This document shows, in pieces, positions 48,788-56,303 of a stretch of 64,000 nucleotides of DNA; the first letter of the stretch is position 1, and every line of letters starts with the position of its first letter. Location: the NCBI RefSeq assembly GCF_056746865.1, contig NZ_CM163382.1. One strand, written 5' to 3'. The notes beneath the pieces were generated by a model that worked only from the letters and a program-made list of their open reading frames with translations, searched no databases and was not told the DNA's origin. Made by a program: the position numbers and the translations under genes.

Positions 48788-50203
48788 ATGACAGATCTTC
48801 CCGACAACACCCGCTGGCAATTGTGGATTGTGGCTTTCGGCTTCTTTATGCAGTCGCTGGACACCACCATCGTCAACACCGCGCTTCCCTCAATGGCGCA
48901 AAGCCTCGGGGAAAGTCCGTTGCATATGCACATGGTCATTGTCTCTTATGTGCTGACCGTGGCGGTGATGTTGCCTGCCAGCGGCTGGCTGGCGGACAAA
49001 GTCGGCGTGCGCAATATTTTCTTTACCGCCATCGTGCTGTTTACTCTCGGTTCACTATTTTGCGCACTTTCCGGCACGCTGAACGAACTGTTGCTGGCAC
49101 GCGCGTTACAGGGCGTTGGCGGTGCGATGATGGTGCCGGTCGGCAGGTTGACGGTGATGAAAATCGTACCGCGCGAGCAATATATGGCGGCGATGACCTT
49201 TGTCACGTTACCCGGTCAGGTCGGTCCGCTGCTCGGTCCGGCGCTCGGCGGCCTGCTGGTGGAGTACGCGTCGTGGCACTGGATCTTTTTGATCAACATT
49301 CCGGTGGGAATTATCGGCGCGATCGCCACACTAATGTTAATGCCGAACTACACCATGCAGACGCGGCGCTTCGATCTCTCCGGCTTTTTATTGCTGGCGA
49401 TTGGCATGGCGGTATTAACCCTGGCGCTGGATGGCAGTAAAGGTACAGGTTTATCGCCGCTGGCGATTACTGGCCTGGTCGCTGTTGGCGTGGTAGCACT
49501 GGTGCTTTATCTGCTGCACGCCAGAAATAACAACCGCGCTCTTTTCAGTCTGAAACTGTTCCGCACTCGTACCTTTTCGCTGGGCCTGGCGGGGAGTTTT
49601 GCCGGACGTATCGGTAGCGGCATGTTGCCCTTTATGACACCGGTTTTCCTGCAAATTGGCCTTGGCTTCTCACCGTTTCATGCCGGACTGATGATGATCC
49701 CGATGGTGCTCGGCAGCATGGGGATGAAGCGAATTGTGGTACAGGTAGTGAATCGCTTTGGTTATCGTCGGGTACTGGTGGCAACCACGCTGGGTCTGTC
49801 GCTGGTCACCCTGTTGTTTATGACTACCGCTCTGCTGGGCTGGTACTACGTTTTGCCGTTCGTCCTGTTTTTACAAGGGATGGTCAACTCGACGCGTTTC
49901 TCCTCCATGAACACCCTGACGCTGAAAGATCTCCCGGACAATCTGGCGAGCAGCGGCAATAGTCTGCTGTCGATGATTATGCAATTGTCGATGAGTATCG
50001 GCGTCACCATCGCCGGGCTGTTGCTGGGACTTTTTGGTTCGCAGCATGTCAGCGTCGACAGCGGCACCACACAAACCGTCTTTATGTACACCTGGCTTAG
50101 CATGGCGTTTATCATCGCCCTTCCGGCGTTCATCTTTGCCAGAGTGCCGAACGATACGCATCAAAATGTAGCTATTTCGCGGCGAAAAAGGAGCGCGCAA
50201 TGA
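48788..50203 (+). CDS. mdtD: MFS transporter MdtD (471 aa)
   Basis: ORF track 471 aa; polytopic; ATG immediately after the mdtC stop. Confidence 0.9.
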
Positions 50204-51603
50204 AGTTCTGGCGACCCGGTATTACCGGCAAACTGTTTCTGGCGATTTTCGCCACCTGCATTGTCTTGCTGATCAGTATGCACTGGGCGGTGCGTATCAG
50301 TTTTGAGCGTGGCTTTATTGATTACATCAAGCATGGTAATGAACAGCGATTACAACTGTTAAGTGATGCGCTTGGCGAGCAGTATGCGCAGCATGGCAAC
50401 TGGCGCTTCCTGCGCAACAATGATCGCTTTGTCTTTCAGATCTTGCGTTCATTTGAACACGATAATTCGGAAGATAAACCCGGCCCGGGTATGCCGCCGC
50501 ACGGCTGGCGTACCCAGTTCTGGGTGGTCGATCAAAACAACAAAGTGCTGGTTGGTCCGCGAGCGCCGATTCCACCTGACGGTACACGGCGACCCATTCT
50601 GGTCAACGGTGCGGAAGTGGGTGCGGTGATTGCCTCCCCTGTTGAGCGACTGACCCGCAATACTGATATCAATTTCGATAAACAACAGCGGCAAACCAGC
50701 TGGCTGATTGTTGCTCTGGCAACGTTACTCGCGGCACTCGCTACCTTTCTGCTGGCGCGTGGTTTGCTGGCACCGGTAAAACGGCTGGTGGACGGCACGC
50801 ACAAACTGGCGGCGGGCGATTTCACTACCCGCGTAACGCCCACCAGTGAAGATGAACTGGGCAAACTGGCGCAAGACTTCAACCAGCTTGCCAGCACGCT
50901 GGAGAAAAACCAGCAAATGCGGCGCGATTTTATGGCCGATATTTCTCACGAACTGCGTACGCCATTAGCGGTGCTGCGCGGTGAACTGGAAGCCATTCAG
51001 GATGGCGTGCGTAAATTCACGCCGGAGACGGTGGCGTCTTTACAGGCGGAGGTCGGTACACTGACCAAACTGGTTGACGATCTCCATCAGTTGTCGATGT
51101 CTGATGAAGGCGCTCTCGCCTATCAAAAAGCACCGGTAGATTTGATCCCACTGCTGGAAGTGGCGGGCGGCGCATTTCGCGAACGATTCGCCAGCCGTGG
51201 CCTGAAACTGCAATTTTCCCTGCCAGACAGTATTACCGTATTTGGCGATCGCGACCGTTTAATGCAGTTATTCAATAACTTACTGGAAAACAGCCTGCGC
51301 TACACTGACAGCGGCGGTAGCCTGAAAATCTCTGCCGGGCAGCACGACAAAACGGTGCGACTGACCTTTGCCGACAGCGCGCCGGGCGTCAGTGACGATC
51401 AGCTACAAAAATTGTTTGAACGTTTTTATCGCACCGAAGGTTCCCGCAACCGAGCCAGCGGCGGTTCCGGGCTGGGGCTGGCGATTTGCCTGAACATTGT
51501 TGAAGCACATAATGGTCGCATTATTGCTGCCCATTCGCCTTTTGGCGGGGTAAGCATTACAGTAGAGTTACCGCTGGAACGGGATTTACAGAGAGAAGTA
51601 TGA
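50200..51603 (+). CDS. baeS: envelope-stress sensor histidine kinase BaeS (467 aa)
   Basis: ORF track 467 aa; H-box [11 protein letters not shown]; 4-nt overlap with mdtD. Confidence 0.92.
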
Positions 51604-52322
51604 CCGAGTTACCAATCGACGAAAACACACCGCGTATTTTGATCGTGGAAGATGAACCGAAGCTGGGACAGTTGCTCATTGATTATCTGCGTGCTGCGAG
51701 CTATGCGCCGACGCTTATCAGCCACGGCGATCAGGTACTGCCGTATGTGCGCCAGACACCACCGGATCTGATCCTGTTGGATCTGATGCTCCCTGGCACC
51801 GATGGCTTGACGCTGTGCCGGGAAATTCGTCGTTTTTCTGACATTCCTATCGTGATGGTGACGGCAAAAATAGAAGAGATCGACCGCCTGCTCGGACTGG
51901 AGATTGGCGCAGATGATTATATCTGTAAGCCGTACAGCCCACGGGAAGTGGTAGCGCGCGTCAAAACCATTTTGCGCCGTTGCAAACCGCAGCGTGAGTT
52001 GCAGCAACAGGATGCTGAAAGCCCGTTGATTATCGACGAAGGTCGTTTTCAGGCTTCATGGCGCGGTAAAATGCTTGACCTGACGCCTGCGGAATTTCGT
52101 CTGCTGAAAACGCTCTCTCATGAACCAGGAAAAGTGTTCTCCCGCGAGCAATTGCTCAATCATCTTTATGACGACTACCGCGTAGTAACCGACCGCACCA
52201 TCGACAGCCACATTAAAAACCTGCGCCGCAAGCTGGAATCTCTCGACGCCGAACAGTCCTTTATCCGTGCCGTTTACGGCGTCGGTTACCGCTGGGAAGC
52301 CGACGCCTGCCGCATCGTTTAA
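51600..52322 (+). CDS. baeR: OmpR-family response regulator BaeR (240 aa)
   Basis: ORF track 240 aa; receiver domain ([23 protein letters not shown]) + winged-helix C-terminus; 4-nt overlap with baeS. Confidence 0.93.
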
Positions 52323-52501
52323 CATTTTTACCTGCCGGAGAAGGCATTCACGCCGCATCCGGCAACATAATCCCACGCATGGTCAGCAAACTGACATTAT
52401 CTCTCCGCCCTGGCAGGCACCAGAAAATCGCTCATACTTTAATCGGTAAACAGTCCTTTTAGATGCTGTTTTCGATACGCAATTTCAATCAAGGAGTCAT
52501 T

Positions 52502-52834
52502 ATGGCTGGTTGGTTTGAACTCAGTAAAAGCAGTGATAATCAATTTCGGTTTGTGCTAAAAGCGGGCAATGGTGAGACTATCCTTACCAGCGAGCTGTAT
52601 ACCTCAAAAGCCTCTGCGGAAAAGGGCATCGCGTCGGTGCGTAGCAACAGCCCGCAAGAAGAACGCTATGAGAAAAAAACGGCAAGCAACGGCAAATTCT
52701 ATTTCAATCTGAAAGCCGCTAATCATCAAATTATCGGCTCCAGCCAGATGTACGCCACCGCGCAATCTCGTGAAACCGGAATTGCCTCCGTTAAAGCCAA
52801 TGGCACAAGCCAGACGGTGAAAGACAATACGTAA
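52502..52834 (+). CDS. yegP: YegP (tandem DUF1508/UPF0339 repeats, 110 aa)
   Basis: ORF track frame 52463..52834; start placed at ATG 52502 (MAGWFELSKSSDNQFRF) after SD aaggag; internal duplication visible. Confidence 0.85.
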   Translation: MAGWFELSKSSDNQFRFVLKAGNGETILTSELYTSKASAEKGIASVRSNSPQEERYEKKTASNGKFYFNLKAANHQIIGSSQMYATAQSRETGIASVKANGTSQTVKDNT

Positions 52835-52981
52835 TTACGATGCCGGGCGTGGGTTGTTGGCGTCCGGCGCTTTACCAGCTCCCCCCTACAGCGCTACAAT
52901 GCCCGCCCTTAAAGTGGGGGCACTCCCCTGGCCGCTTCATCAGGTGAAGCGGATCTGACCTGTCATCAGAACGAGAGAATT

Positions 52982-54343
52982 ATGTTTAAACCGGAACTCC
53001 TTTCCCCGGCGGGAACGCTGAAAAATATGCGTTACGCTTTCGCTTATGGCGCAGATGCTGTTTATGCGGGCCAGCCGCGTTACTCCCTGCGTGTGCGCAA
53101 CAACGAATTTAACCACGAAAATCTCCAGCTCGGCATCAATGAAGCCCACGCGCTGGGGAAAAAGTTTTATGTCGTGGTCAACATTGCACCGCACAACGCC
53201 AAGCTGAAAACCTTTATCCGTGACCTGAAACCGGTGGTGGAAATGGGGCCGGATGCGCTGATTATGTCCGATCCAGGGCTGATTATGCTGGTGCGTGAGC
53301 ACTTCCCTGAAATGCCGATCCATCTCTCGGTACAGGCTAACGCCGTGAACTGGGCGACGGTGAAATTCTGGCAGCAAATGGGCCTGACCCGCGTGATCCT
53401 CTCTCGCGAGCTGTCGCTGGAAGAGATTGAAGAGATCCGCAATCAGGTGCCGGATATGGAGGTAGAGATCTTCGTTCACGGCGCGCTGTGCATGGCCTAC
53501 TCCGGTCGCTGCCTGCTCTCTGGCTATATCAACAAGCGCGACCCGAACCAGGGCACCTGCACCAACGCCTGCCGCTGGGAATACAACGTCCAGGAAGGGA
53601 AAGAAGATGACGTTGGCAACATCGTACACAAGTACGAGCCGATTCCGGTGCAAAATGTTGAGCCGACGCTGGGTATCGGCGCACCAACCGACAAAGTGTT
53701 TATGATCGAAGAGGCCCAGCGTCCGGGCGAGTATATGACCGCGTTTGAAGATGAGCACGGCACTTACATCATGAACTCGAAAGATCTGCGCGCCATCGCC
53801 CATGTAGAACGCCTGACCAAAATGGGAGTGCATTCGCTGAAAATCGAAGGCCGTACCAAATCTTTCTACTATTGCGCACGCACCGCGCAGGTTTACCGTA
53901 AAGCTATCGATGACGCAGCTGCGGGAAAACCATTCGATACCAGCCTGCTGGAAACTCTGGAAGGTCTGGCGCATCGTGGCTATACCGAAGGTTTCCTGCG
54001 TCGTCATACTCACGACGATTATCAGAACTACGAATACGGTTATTCAGTTTCTGACCGCCAGCAGTTTGTTGGTGAGTTTACCGGTGAGCGCAAGGGCGAC
54101 CTCGCGGCGGTAGCGGTGAAAAATAAATTCTCCGTTGGTGACAGCCTTGAGCTGATGACGCCGCAAGGCAACATTAACTTTACCCTTGAGCACATGGAAA
54201 ACGCCAAAGGTGAAGCTATGCCGGTCGCACCAGGCGATGGTTATACTGTGTGGCTCCCGGTCCCGCAGGATCTTGAGCTAAATTACGCGCTCCTGATGCG
54301 TAATTTCTCCGGGGAAACCACGCGTAACCCCCACGGTAAGTGA
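52982..54343 (+). CDS. yegQ: peptidase U32-family protein YegQ (tRNA hydroxylation protein TrhP-like, 453 aa)
   Basis: ORF track 453 aa beginning MFKPELLSPAGTLKNMRYAFAYGADAVYAGQPRYSLR. Confidence 0.9.
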   Translation: MFKPELLSPAGTLKNMRYAFAYGADAVYAGQPRYSLRVRNNEFNHENLQLGINEAHALGKKFYVVVNIAPHNAKLKTFIRDLKPVVEMGPDALIMSDPGLIMLVREHFPEMPIHLSVQANAVNWATVKFWQQMGLTRVILSRELSLEEIEEIRNQVPDMEVEIFVHGALCMAYSGRCLLSGYINKRDPNQGTCTNACRWEYNVQEGKEDDVGNIVHKYEPIPVQNVEPTLGIGAPTDKVFMIEEAQRPGEYMTAFEDEHGTYIMNSKDLRAIAHVERLTKMGVHSLKIEGRTKSFYYCARTAQVYRKAIDDAAAGKPFDTSLLETLEGLAHRGYTEGFLRRHTHDDYQNYEYGYSVSDRQQFVGEFTGERKGDLAAVAVKNKFSVGDSLELMTPQGNINFTLEHMENAKGEAMPVAPGDGYTVWLPVPQDLELNYALLMRNFSGETTRNPHGK

Positions 54344-54479
54344 TTAATTTCGATTATTTTTCCCGGATGGAAAATTCTTAGAAACCGATCACATACAGCT
54401 GCATTTATTAAGGTTATCATCCGTTTCGCTGAAAAACATAACCCATAAAATGCTAGCTGTACCAGGAACCACCTCCTTA

Positions 54480-54514
54480 GCCTGTGTAATCTCCCTTACA
54501 CGGGCTTATTTTTT
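54480..54514 (+). terminator. rho-independent terminator-like hairpin downstream of yegQ (gcctgtgtaa-tctccc-ttacacgggc + ttattttttat)
   Basis: 10-bp stem (one G-U) followed by T-run, read directly. Confidence 0.5.
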
Positions 54515-54671
54515 ATGCATAAGCCGTATCCTGGTCACCGTCTTCCATTGACCACATCGATAGAATCCCCCTTCATAACACGATGCCTTTCACGTAACGG
54601 CATCGTGCTCGTACAGATTCCGGCTACGCACAACCAGAACGCGCATGTTTGACGCTTACCAAAAAATATTC

Positions 54672-54989
54672 TCACTCTCCACATTTGAATGTCAGACGAG
54701 CGACGCCATGTAATCCTGCACCTTCTGTCTTCAGGTCAACTATCTGCATTTTTTTGCCCTGAGTAACACAGAAATGAGCTGCATCATTTTTTACTATATT
54801 TTCTGCACCAGAAATTCTGCCCCTGGCTAAAGAAGCTTCGGCTTCGGTGTAGTATTGGTTATCGAGTTTACGCTGAATATTACTTTTATATGCAAGACCA
54901 AATTTACCGATACTTGTCTCATCATTATGTACAGCACACCCAGACATAAGAAAAACACTAATTAATGATATAGCAGCTATCTTTTTCAT
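54672..54989 (-). CDS. yegR: small lipoprotein YegR (105 aa)
   Basis: ORF track frame 54672..55049; start placed at ATG giving MKKIAAISLISVFLMSGC (lipobox). Confidence 0.85.
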   Translation of the reverse strand: MKKIAAISLISVFLMSGCAVHNDETSIGKFGLAYKSNIQRKLDNQYYTEAEASLARGRISGAENIVKNDAAHFCVTQGKKMQIVDLKTEGAGLHGVARLTFKCGE

Positions 54990-55403
54990 CTTACCTTCCC
55001 CCATTAAATACCAACGACACGCTCTGGTGTTAAAATATAATAATGGCATGATTATTATAATTGAATAGGATTATAATAAATGTTCTGTACAACATTTCCT
55101 ACATAAGTAGGAATTACATACACGGAGGCCCTTCCGGGTAACCCCATGGGGGGGTTAATATATTTTTAATAGTATATTGAAGATGCCACTGTTTAGTTGA
55201 ATATTAGGTATATGCTCTTTTTTGAAATTTACCTATGGCTACCGTTAACATTCACTGTCCCCATTGCAAGCTCCTGGTGGTAACCACTGAATCCTCTATA
55301 CTTGAACTGATTTTTTATCCTCCGACTTTCATCCTGTTCTGACTCCACCTTTTCTTTTCTGCTCTACACTATCTACAGACCAATCATAAAGGCACATACG
55401 ATC

Positions 55404-56303
55404 ATGGCAGAATTTCCCGCCAGCTTACTGATTCTTAATGGCAAAAGTACTGACAATTTACCATTGCGCGAAGCAATTATGCTGTTGCGTGAGGAAGGAA
55501 TGACGATCCATGTGCGGGTCACCTGGGAGAAAGGCGATGCCGCACGATATGTAGAGGAGGCCCGGAAGTTGGGCGTCGCAACGGTGATTGCCGGTGGTGG
55601 CGATGGCACCATTAATGAAGTTTCTACGGCGTTGATTCAGTGTGAGGGGGATGACATACCCGCGCTAGGAATTTTGCCATTAGGAACCGCCAATGATTTT
55701 GCCACCAGTGTAAGGATTCCTGAGGCACTGGATAAGGCGCTGAAACTGGCAATTGCCGGTGACGCCATTGCGATAGATATGGCGCAGGTCAACAAACAAA
55801 CCTGTTTTATTAATATGGCGACAGGCGGATTTGGGACGCGTATTACCACAGAAACGCCGGAAAAATTAAAAGCCGCGCTGGGTGGCGTCTCTTACATCAT
55901 TCATGGCTTAATGCGCATGGATACTCTGCAACCGGACCGTTGTGAGATCCGCGGTGAAAACTTTCACTGGCAAGGTGACGCCCTGGTCATTGGTATTGGT
56001 AACGGGCGTCAGGCCGGTGGCGGTCAGCAATTGTGCCCGAACGCGTTAATTAACGATGGCTTGCTGCAACTGCGCATTTTTACCGGCGATGAAATTCTTC
56101 CGGCTCTCGTATCAACATTAAAATCTGACGAAGATAACCCGAATATTATCGAAGGCGCTTCGTCGTGGTTTGATATACAAGCCCCACACGAAATCACTTT
56201 TAATCTTGATGGCGAACCGTTGAGCGGACAAAACTTTCATATTGAAATACTTCCGGCGGCGTTGCGTTGTCGATTACCACCAGATTGCCCATTGTTGCGT
56301 TAA
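55404..56303 (+). CDS. yegS: lipid kinase YegS (diacylglycerol-kinase catalytic family, 299 aa)
   Basis: ORF track 299 aa; DAGK-type motif ([13 protein letters not shown]). Confidence 0.9.

Follow-up and report, generated by a model that had tools for sequence, protein, structure and literature searches.

A conserved three-hairpin leader of yegQ (trhP) in Enterobacterales and its resemblance to the anticodon arm of tRNA-Thr(UGU)

Threonyl-tRNA synthetase (ThrRS) of E. coli represses thrS by binding to an operator, which blocks initiation; as reported by Springer, Romby and co-workers, this autoregulation works through a mimic of the anticodon arm. The ErmC methyltransferase also regulates its own translation, by binding its mRNA at a site that resembles its target in 23S rRNA. 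Furthermore, Bar-Yaacov and colleagues are said to have described, in 2017, mRNA hairpins such as that of hokB that mimic the anticodon loop of tRNA-Arg and are edited by TadA. The subject of the present work is the 5' untranslated region (UTR) of yegQ in a 64,000-nucleotide stretch of contig NZ_CM163382.1 (NCBI RefSeq assembly GCF_056746865.1), hereafter the window, which covers the E. coli baeS-baeR-yegP-yegQ(trhP)-cyaR region. yegQ, or trhP, encodes the tRNA-modifying enzyme TrhP, and its 75-nt leader contains three hairpins, P1 to P3, the last of which is similar to the anticodon arm of tRNA-Thr(UGU), one of the substrates of TrhP. The leader is very probably a selected cis-acting RNA. Our analysis suggests that TrhP may regulate its own synthesis through tRNA mimicry, by means of a translational operator like that of thrS, a reading to which we assign a probability of roughly 0.35-0.4.

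The 75-nt leader of yegQ and its conservation

The yegP stop codon (52832-52834) and the yegQ ATG at 52982 enclose a gap of 147 bp. An earlier note, made from the DNA letters alone, located this gap correctly and took it for a single structured leader of yegQ, with three strong inverted repeats and more structure than a terminator needs, that might act as an attenuator or another regulatory RNA element. A published start site of yegQ, NC_000913.2 position 2163617, supported by 29 reads, corresponds to window position 52907 and defines the 75-nt 5' UTR (Kim et al. 2012, PMC3415461, supplementary file 2). A Term-seq 3' end lies upstream of it, at 52872, just past the hairpin that follows yegP. 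Since yegP RNA ends at 52872 and yegQ RNA starts at 52907, only 52907-52981 is leader RNA of yegQ, and the first 38 nt of the gap belong to the yegP transcript. Supported by these two RNA ends and by a promoter match that is conserved across ~80 species, a division of the gap into three adjoining elements, namely the terminator hairpin of yegP, a sigma-70 promoter of yegQ and the 75-nt 5' UTR, is highly probable and replaces the notion of one leader.

The structural claims of the earlier note fared unevenly. Folding of the entire gap is no better than that of shuffled sequences (z = -0.15 on the plus strand and -0.20 on the minus strand), so that an excess of structure applies to sub-elements and not to the whole. 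Two of the three repeats are real. In the first, gccgggcg (52842-52849) pairs with cgtccggc (52861-52868), and the resulting stem of 9 bp folds with -18.3 kcal/mol, at a z score of -2.15 relative to shuffled sequences; in the other, ccgcttca (52932-52939) and tgaagcgg (52945-52952) form a perfect 8-bp repeat that extends to 9 bp in the fold. The letters of the remaining pair, ccccc and ggggg, are present at 52881-52886 and 52916-52920 but do not form a unit: the C-run lies 5' of the mapped start, in the promoter spacer and within 23 bp that vary among strains, and the G-run pairs with a CCCC further downstream (52925-52928). The element that proved to be the most conserved one of the gap, P3, had been overlooked, as had the promoter. 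The features of the leader and its gene are as follows.

52916 to 52929, plus strand: hairpin P1, GGGGG-CACU-CCCCU, from the minimum-energy fold and compensatory variants
52932 to 52952, plus strand: hairpin P2, G+C-rich, CCGCUUCAU-CAG-GUGAAGCGG, variable in sequence and constant in structure, from the perfect inverted repeat and covariation
52954 to 52970, plus strand: hairpin P3, UCUGA-CCUGUCA-UCAGA, a 5-bp stem with a 7-nt loop, from conservation, fold and comparison with tRNA
52973 to 52984, plus strand: weak Shine-Dalgarno-like GAGAG (52973-52977) and the yegQ start codon (52982-52984), with (A/C)GAGA conserved in nearly all species
52982 to 54343, plus strand: yegQ = trhP, encoding the prephenate-dependent tRNA uridine(34) hydroxylase of the U32 peptidase family, from the open reading frame and RefSeq product names, with the function according to Sakai et al. 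2019 (PMC6599085)

For comparison, yegQ loci were fetched from 80 species of Enterobacteriaceae, and 72 distinct leaders were aligned from the start site to the ATG; including more distant families, conservation was followed in 85 species of Enterobacterales. The leaders share one order of elements: promoter, discriminator GCCCGCCC, P1, P2, P3, ACGAGA, a few bases and the ATG. P1 and P2 are conserved as structures, P3 as a sequence. Changes on both sides were found at all eight pairs of P2, and none of 500 shuffles reached the observed covariation; the outcome that the earlier note had named as a refutation, a lack of conserved covarying structure, was thus not obtained. The P2 cells are paired to 90.5%, compared with 37-58% when the partners are slid; in the model-fitted alignment, which leans towards structure, 93.6% of the cells are paired versus 35-52% in slid controls. 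P2 and P3 together fold with -16.8 kcal/mol (z = -2.88), and both are recovered by RNAalifold. Of the three hairpins, P1 has the weakest support: compensatory variants such as GAGGA/UCCUC occur in Salmonella and Citrobacter, and each of its four pairs has double changes, though in the model-fitted alignment with its lean towards structure.

In P3, 15 of the 17 columns are invariant among the 72 Enterobacteriaceae leaders and all are at least 85% conserved. The block that comprises P3 and the Shine-Dalgarno sequence (52954-52976) has a mean pairwise identity of ~0.96, whereas the 46 four-fold degenerate sites among yegQ codons 1-120 average 0.62, and it is this difference that points to strong purifying selection on P3 and the Shine-Dalgarno sequence. 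In its broad sense, the earlier proposal of a regulatory RNA element is thus sustained by the covarying P2 and by a P3-Shine-Dalgarno block that is conserved far above synonymous sites. P3 spans positions -28 to -12 relative to the AUG; it ends 11 nt before the AUG and 2 nt before the weak GAG of the Shine-Dalgarno sequence and hence lies within the region bound by the 30S ribosomal subunit. On its own P3 is predicted to be weak (-3.4 kcal/mol), and the predicted fold leaves the Shine-Dalgarno sequence unpaired.

Rfam contains no family for the P1-P2-P3 leader: a cmscan search of 51500-55500 against Rfam 15 at E values up to 10, a check that the earlier note had suggested, returned no match within 52835-52981. 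Nor was a description of the motif found in the literature searched, the coverage of which was incomplete, and a prior mention in a list of candidate motifs is possible. The leader occurs in one place per genome and is single-copy in 5423 E. coli genomes. A kissing interaction between the loops of P2 (CAGG) and P3 (CCUG), which are complementary in E. coli, was considered and rejected; the P2 loops vary (for example CCUGG, CCCUG and UUAAG) with no corresponding changes, and the spacing of 1 nt between the hairpins also disfavors it. Among the variants observed, positions 52930-52931, which link P1 to P2 and belong to no stem, read GG in the window but AA in K-12 and in most E. coli; across the leader, an identity of 99% or more with the window is reached by only 343 of 5425 records. 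In Cedecea sulfonylureivorans the trhP leader contains an insert of ~135 bp with a terminator-like hairpin, flanked by a 27-bp direct repeat that duplicates P2. The insert separates the promoter and P1 from P3 and the start codon.

Beyond Enterobacteriaceae, the sequence CUGA-C(C/U)UGNNN-UCAG-A is kept in Yersinia, Morganella, Mixta, Pectobacterium, Limnobaculum, Leminorella, Sodalis and Photorhabdus. In these eight genera it is combined with a TA(C/G/A)AAT -10 hexamer, a G+C-rich hairpin of unrelated sequence and a GAGA-type Shine-Dalgarno sequence; the G+C-rich hairpin lies directly 5' of P3 in six of the eight, the exceptions being Mixta and Sodalis. The geometry of a 5-bp stem and a 7-nt loop is retained in all 85 species examined. 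A covariance model built from Enterobacteriaceae only finds all eight held-out genera in a search of 335 kb, seven with E values of 5e-9 to 0.01 and the eighth with 0.23. In ~270 kb of E. coli DNA it finds nothing else except the tRNA gene thrU, which is discussed below. The element appears, from the loci compared, to be confined to Enterobacterales. A related string was noticed elsewhere: in E. coli XL1-Blue, CCTGAAATCAGAC, which equals the P3 loop and 3' arm as in Buttiauxella and is one base off the Photorhabdus form, lies upstream of yecD-yecE-yecN-cmoA-cmoB, an operon that encodes the next enzymes of the pathway. It lacks the 5' arm and consequently forms no hairpin, and its occurrence upstream of the cmoAB operon is probably due to chance (roughly 0.01).

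Resemblance of P3 to tRNA-Thr(UGU) and its possible meaning

Six tRNAs with the xo5U modification are affected by deletion of yegQ, on which their xo5U34 is partly dependent, namely Thr4, Ser1, Pro3, Ala1, Leu3 and Val1 (Sakai et al. 2019, PMC6599085). P3 was compared with 26 distinct anticodon arms taken from the annotated tRNA genes of an E. coli K-12 genome, including those of the six substrates. P3 shares the geometry of an anticodon arm, a stem of 5 bp and a loop of 7 nt, in which position 34 is the site of action of TrhP; the P3 loop (52959-52965) reads C32 C33 U34 G35 U36 C37 A38 in anticodon numbering. The anticodon arm of tRNA-Thr(UGU), read from the annotated genome as ACUGA-CUUGUAA-UCAGU, is the best match among the 26 for every P3 variant, with 12-14 of 17 positions identical. 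In E. coli the value is 13/17, and it rises to 14/17 in Pectobacterium (CCUGA-CUUGUCA-UCAGA), Limnobaculum (UCUGA-CUUGUGA-UCAGA) and Sodalis; the runner-up tRNA has 9-11/17. Random 5-7-5 hairpins reach at least 13/17 with one of the six substrates at a probability of 0.0026, and at least 14/17 at a probability of 0.0005. When up to two mismatches are allowed, the pattern CTGACTTGTAATCAG has a single occurrence in the 64-kb window, namely P3, versus 0.09 occurrences expected.

The natural P3 loops (CCUGUCA, CCUGACA, CCUGAAA, CCUGAUA, CUUGACA, CUUGAAC, CUUGUCA, CUUGUGA, CCUGCGA and CCUGAAU) show which positions are constrained. No change is seen at C32, U34 or G35, both C and U occur at position 33, and variation is found at positions 36-38, which also differ between the substrate tRNAs; among the E. 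coli tRNAs read, G35 follows U34 only in xo5U substrates. The likeness extends beyond P3, since P2, a linker of 1 nt and P3 are arranged like the D arm, N26 and the anticodon arm of a tRNA. The match of the leader model to thrU, the sole one outside trhP in a search of 335 kb with 44 tRNA genes, aligns P2 to the D arm, the linker base to A26 and P3 to the anticodon arm.

Three features of a thrS-type operator, a class defined by binding and repression, are found together in the yegQ leader: the geometry of an anticodon arm, likeness to the cognate tRNA and a position in the ribosome-binding region of a mapped transcript. In the mechanism proposed by analogy with thrS, TrhP that is free of unmodified tRNA would bind P3 as a mimic of its substrate, and P2 and P3 would be stacked like the D stem and anticodon stem of a tRNA. 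The bound protein would stabilize the weak P3 and prevent binding of the 30S subunit, and translation of trhP would be repressed; because P3 lies within the 30S-binding region, a protein that stabilizes it is expected to block initiation. Synthesis of TrhP would in this way track the demand for U34 hydroxylation. A more elaborate version, in which TrhP gauges its own need via a mimic of the complete D-arm/anticodon-arm stack of tRNA-Thr(UGU) in its 5' UTR, is somewhat doubtful; in its strongest form U52961 would itself be hydroxylated or carboxymethoxylated, and the leader would be a chemical sensor of the capacity for modification that depends on prephenate, Fe-S clusters or oxygen.

Several observations weigh against substrate mimicry. 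A match of 13/17 to some tRNA anticodon arm is common, with about ten such hairpins in the 64-kb window, and because it is common the argument rests on the identity of the downstream gene and of the matched tRNA. The hypothesis was formed after the hairpin had been seen. The match to thrU is weak (11.8 bits, with an E value of 2.8 for the whole search and 0.006 locally). The P3 stem is invariant and therefore lends no covariation support to its pairing. In P3 of E. coli, C takes the place both of the universal U33 and of the purine at position 37, whereas the thrS mimic retains U33 and G37; other families do have U33, and the Limnobaculum loop, C-U-UGU-G-A, is fully tRNA-like. No P3-like hairpin occurs at the loci of four distant TrhP homologs outside Enterobacterales, which have identities of 63%, 65%, 46% and, for an N-terminal portion, 74%, or in the leaders of trhO, cmoA and cmoM. 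Finally, in the work of Sakai et al. 2019 (PMC6599085), TrhP had not been reconstituted in vitro.

Regulation of trhP translation or stability by a different factor that recognizes P3, be it an RNA-binding protein, another anticodon-loop enzyme, ThrRS or a conserved small RNA, is unlikely but comes next in order. The conservation of P3, its proximity to the Shine-Dalgarno sequence and its asymmetric loop, in which CYUG is fixed and the 3' half is free, would suit sequence-specific RNA recognition by any partner. ThrRS is a candidate in that the loop of most Enterobacteriaceae contains UGU, a threonine anticodon, and ThrRS recognizes an anticodon of this kind in its own operator; however, in many lineages position 36 has changed to A or C, and ThrRS would no longer recognize such a loop, and there is no known reason for ThrRS to control trhP. 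As for a small RNA, two invariant, mutually complementary blocks fit a hairpin better than a linear target.

Rather less probable still is a leader without a dedicated regulator, in which P1 and P2 would protect the 5' end from decay, P3 and GAGA would set a fixed low level of initiation by way of a standby site or spacing, and the likeness to tRNA-Thr would be coincidental. The frequency of 13/17 matches to some anticodon arm would agree with coincidence, as would the thermodynamic weakness of P3 and a Shine-Dalgarno sequence that is never sequestered in the predicted fold. Structural roles, however, usually tolerate compensatory change, as P2 does, whereas the stem and three loop bases of P3 are fixed throughout the order, and the tRNA that is matched is one on which the product of the downstream gene itself acts (p about 0.003 or lower).

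The perfect 5-bp palindrome TCTGA-N7-TCAGA with its invariant arms could also be regarded as a DNA operator at which a dimeric transcription factor forms a roadblock at +48 to +64. We consider this improbable: conservation of the spacer is one-sided (CYTG fixed), as expected of a single-stranded RNA loop and not of a symmetric DNA site, the site lies well downstream of the start, and its spacing, judged by eye, is unlike that of FNR, CRP, LexA and TyrR boxes. An attenuator that controls read-through into yegQ by a terminator/antiterminator or a leader peptide, to which the several G+C-rich hairpins directly 5' of yegQ had pointed in the earlier note, is very improbable, since hairpin 1 belongs to the yegP transcript 5' of the yegQ start site, the scan of 52907-52981 yielded no terminator-like site, AUCUGA follows P2 and ACGAGA follows P3 without U-runs, no upstream open reading frame is conserved (an in-frame start is lacking in 22 of the 72 leaders, and the others differ from one another), P2 and P3 are the same in the minimum-energy and centroid folds, with no competing structure, and the curated Term-seq tables, which are thresholded and cover three growth conditions, hold no entry for yegQ/trhP, so that the Term-seq check proposed earlier located a 3' end at the yegP hairpin and none in the yegQ leader.

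The yegP terminator, the yegQ promoter and the neighboring genes

Upstream of the leader the following features were assigned.

50200 to 52322: open reading frames of BaeS and BaeR
52503 to 52834, plus strand: coding sequence of yegP, DUF1508 family, the upstream neighbor, from the list of open reading frames and identical RefSeq DNA annotated as 'YegP family protein'
52842 to 52868, plus strand: hairpin 1, the terminator or 3'-end hairpin of yegP, a 9-bp stem including G-U pairs followed by GCUUUA, from the fold and Term-seq
52869 to 52891, plus strand: 23 bp that vary among strains, gctttaccagctcccccctacag, comprising the -35, most of the spacer and the C-run, from a megablast split at query position 192 in ~2240 genomes
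52871 to 52900, plus strand: sigma-70 promoter with -35 TTTACC (52871-52876), an 18-bp spacer and -10 TACAAT (52895-52900), from a consensus scan, conservation and the mapped start
52901 to 52907, plus strand: G+C-rich discriminator GCCCGC and transcription start C52907, from the mapped start and the conservation of GCCCGCCC in Enterobacteriaceae

The terminator and the promoter are ordinary elements and are already contained in published datasets. Hairpin 1 is a G+C-rich stem-loop after the stop codon at which an RNA 3' end has been mapped, as in intrinsic terminators. The Term-seq 3' end, listed as primary for yegP, is MG1655 position 2165559, which equals window position 52872, 4 nt past the stem (Adams et al. 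2021, PMC7815308, supplementary file 1), in the context ...GGCGTCCGGCGCT[T]TACC. The signal is modest (~1200 reads), the U-tract is short (CUUU), with a tail of only GCUUUA, and the consensus terminator scan made no call there; the mapped end is compatible with termination or with a processed end protected by the hairpin. The -35 hexamer of yegQ overlaps the short U-tail of the yegP terminator.

The promoter matches the consensus at 9 of 12 positions, in a scan that returned three sites in the region versus 0.7 expected, and the mapped start lies 7 nt past the -10, as in sigma-70 promoters. TTTAC(C/T) and gcgCTACAAT are conserved in ~80 Enterobacteriaceae. The G+C-rich discriminator suggests that transcription may be sensitive to guanosine tetraphosphate (ppGpp) and DksA and linked to growth rate (stringent type), as it is for other translation-related genes.

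Among 5426 complete E. coli genomes, 1844 (34%) have a parD/parE toxin-antitoxin cassette of ~790 bp in place of 52869-52891, and 3181 have a gap of the window type; in NZ_CP097716, for example, ParD and ParE genes are annotated between yegP and yegQ. The parDE allele loses the native -35 but keeps everything from cgcTACAAT onward and hairpin 1, which is retained in both the empty and the parDE-bearing alleles and has a better tail, TTTATAT, in the latter. Because other Enterobacteriaceae have the TTTAC(C/T) form, the window is judged by sequence comparison to carry the ancestral promoter arrangement. The parE stop codon lies ~20 nt 5' of the retained -10 in cassette strains, in which yegQ may be read through from parDE. 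The loss of the native -35 in a third of E. coli strains constitutes a natural experiment on trhP expression. In a further ~400 complete E. coli genomes, e.g. NZ_CM169484.1 and NZ_CM142777.1, the gap corresponds in full to neither the empty nor the parDE allele; the match is limited to the final 60 bp 5' of the leader, and these genomes may represent a third allele of an insertion hotspot. In E. coli BS-04 (NZ_CP172819.1) the parDE region consists of long A/T homopolymer runs without annotated genes, which looks like an artifact of assembly or polishing.

The gene of the small RNA CyaR (RyeE) follows directly 3' of yegQ (54426-54511, plus strand), with a full-length match to Rfam RF00112 of 100.7 bits. 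A single palindrome similar to repetitive extragenic palindromic (REP) elements lies in the baeR-yegP gap just past the baeR stop codon (52333-52373, plus strand), with a weak match to naRNA4 (25.8 bits). It is the sole REP-like match, and the leader, being single-copy, does not belong to the REP elements or bacterial interspersed mosaic elements (BIMEs). At the beginning of yegQ (codons 2-13, 52985-53020), eight of the ten codons of P-E-L-L-S-P-A-G-T-L fall into the six codon boxes read by xo5U tRNAs, several of them ending in G (CCG, GCG, ACG). As this peptide motif is kept across the U32 family, the codons probably reflect a constraint on the protein and not regulation.

Comparison with known systems

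How bacteria control the levels of tRNA-modifying enzymes is largely unknown. The wobble modification xo5U alters the decoding of codons that end in G or in pyrimidines in six codon boxes, and TrhP ties this modification to the supply of prephenate and to anaerobic conditions. A look-alike of an anticodon arm on the ribosome-binding site of trhP offers a concrete feedback hypothesis for a tRNA modification pathway. If it is true, the thrS paradigm would extend from synthetases to modification enzymes, and TrhP would be, to our knowledge, the first bacterial tRNA-modifying enzyme shown to regulate itself through substrate mimicry. Whether mimicry applies or not, the leader is a strongly selected RNA motif, distributed throughout the order and outside Rfam.

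The junction that precedes the leader has a common form, an ordinary terminator followed by an overlapping downstream promoter; here it consists of hairpin 1 with its mapped 3' end and then the -35 of the next gene. For the leader itself, the TadA sites provide one likeness, in that an mRNA hairpin that resembles an anticodon arm becomes the target of an enzyme of the tRNA anticodon loop. Those sites, however, are found within the coding sequences of unrelated genes and undergo chemical modification, whereas P3 lies in the leader of the enzyme's own gene, and its modification is only a possibility. ErmC resembles what is proposed for TrhP in that an RNA-modifying enzyme represses its own translation via a mimic of its substrate. 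The differences are that the substrate of ErmC is rRNA, the host is Gram-positive and the gene is plasmid-borne; moreover, neither sequence nor structure relates it to the trhP leader.

The closest counterpart is the thrS operator. In both cases a 5-bp stem with a 7-nt loop that bears bases resembling the anticodon of a tRNA on which the encoded enzyme acts lies just 5' of the Shine-Dalgarno sequence in the mRNA of the enzyme concerned. The thrS hairpin, read for comparison as GAUCU-UUCGUGU-GGGUC, ends 23 nt before its AUG, in contrast to the 11 nt of P3. The thrS operator contains two mimic domains, whereas the trhP leader has one putative mimic hairpin that follows a G+C-rich hairpin, presumably stacked on it. 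Lastly, the thrS operator serves a synthetase, whereas trhP, with its putative operator, encodes an enzyme that modifies tRNA.

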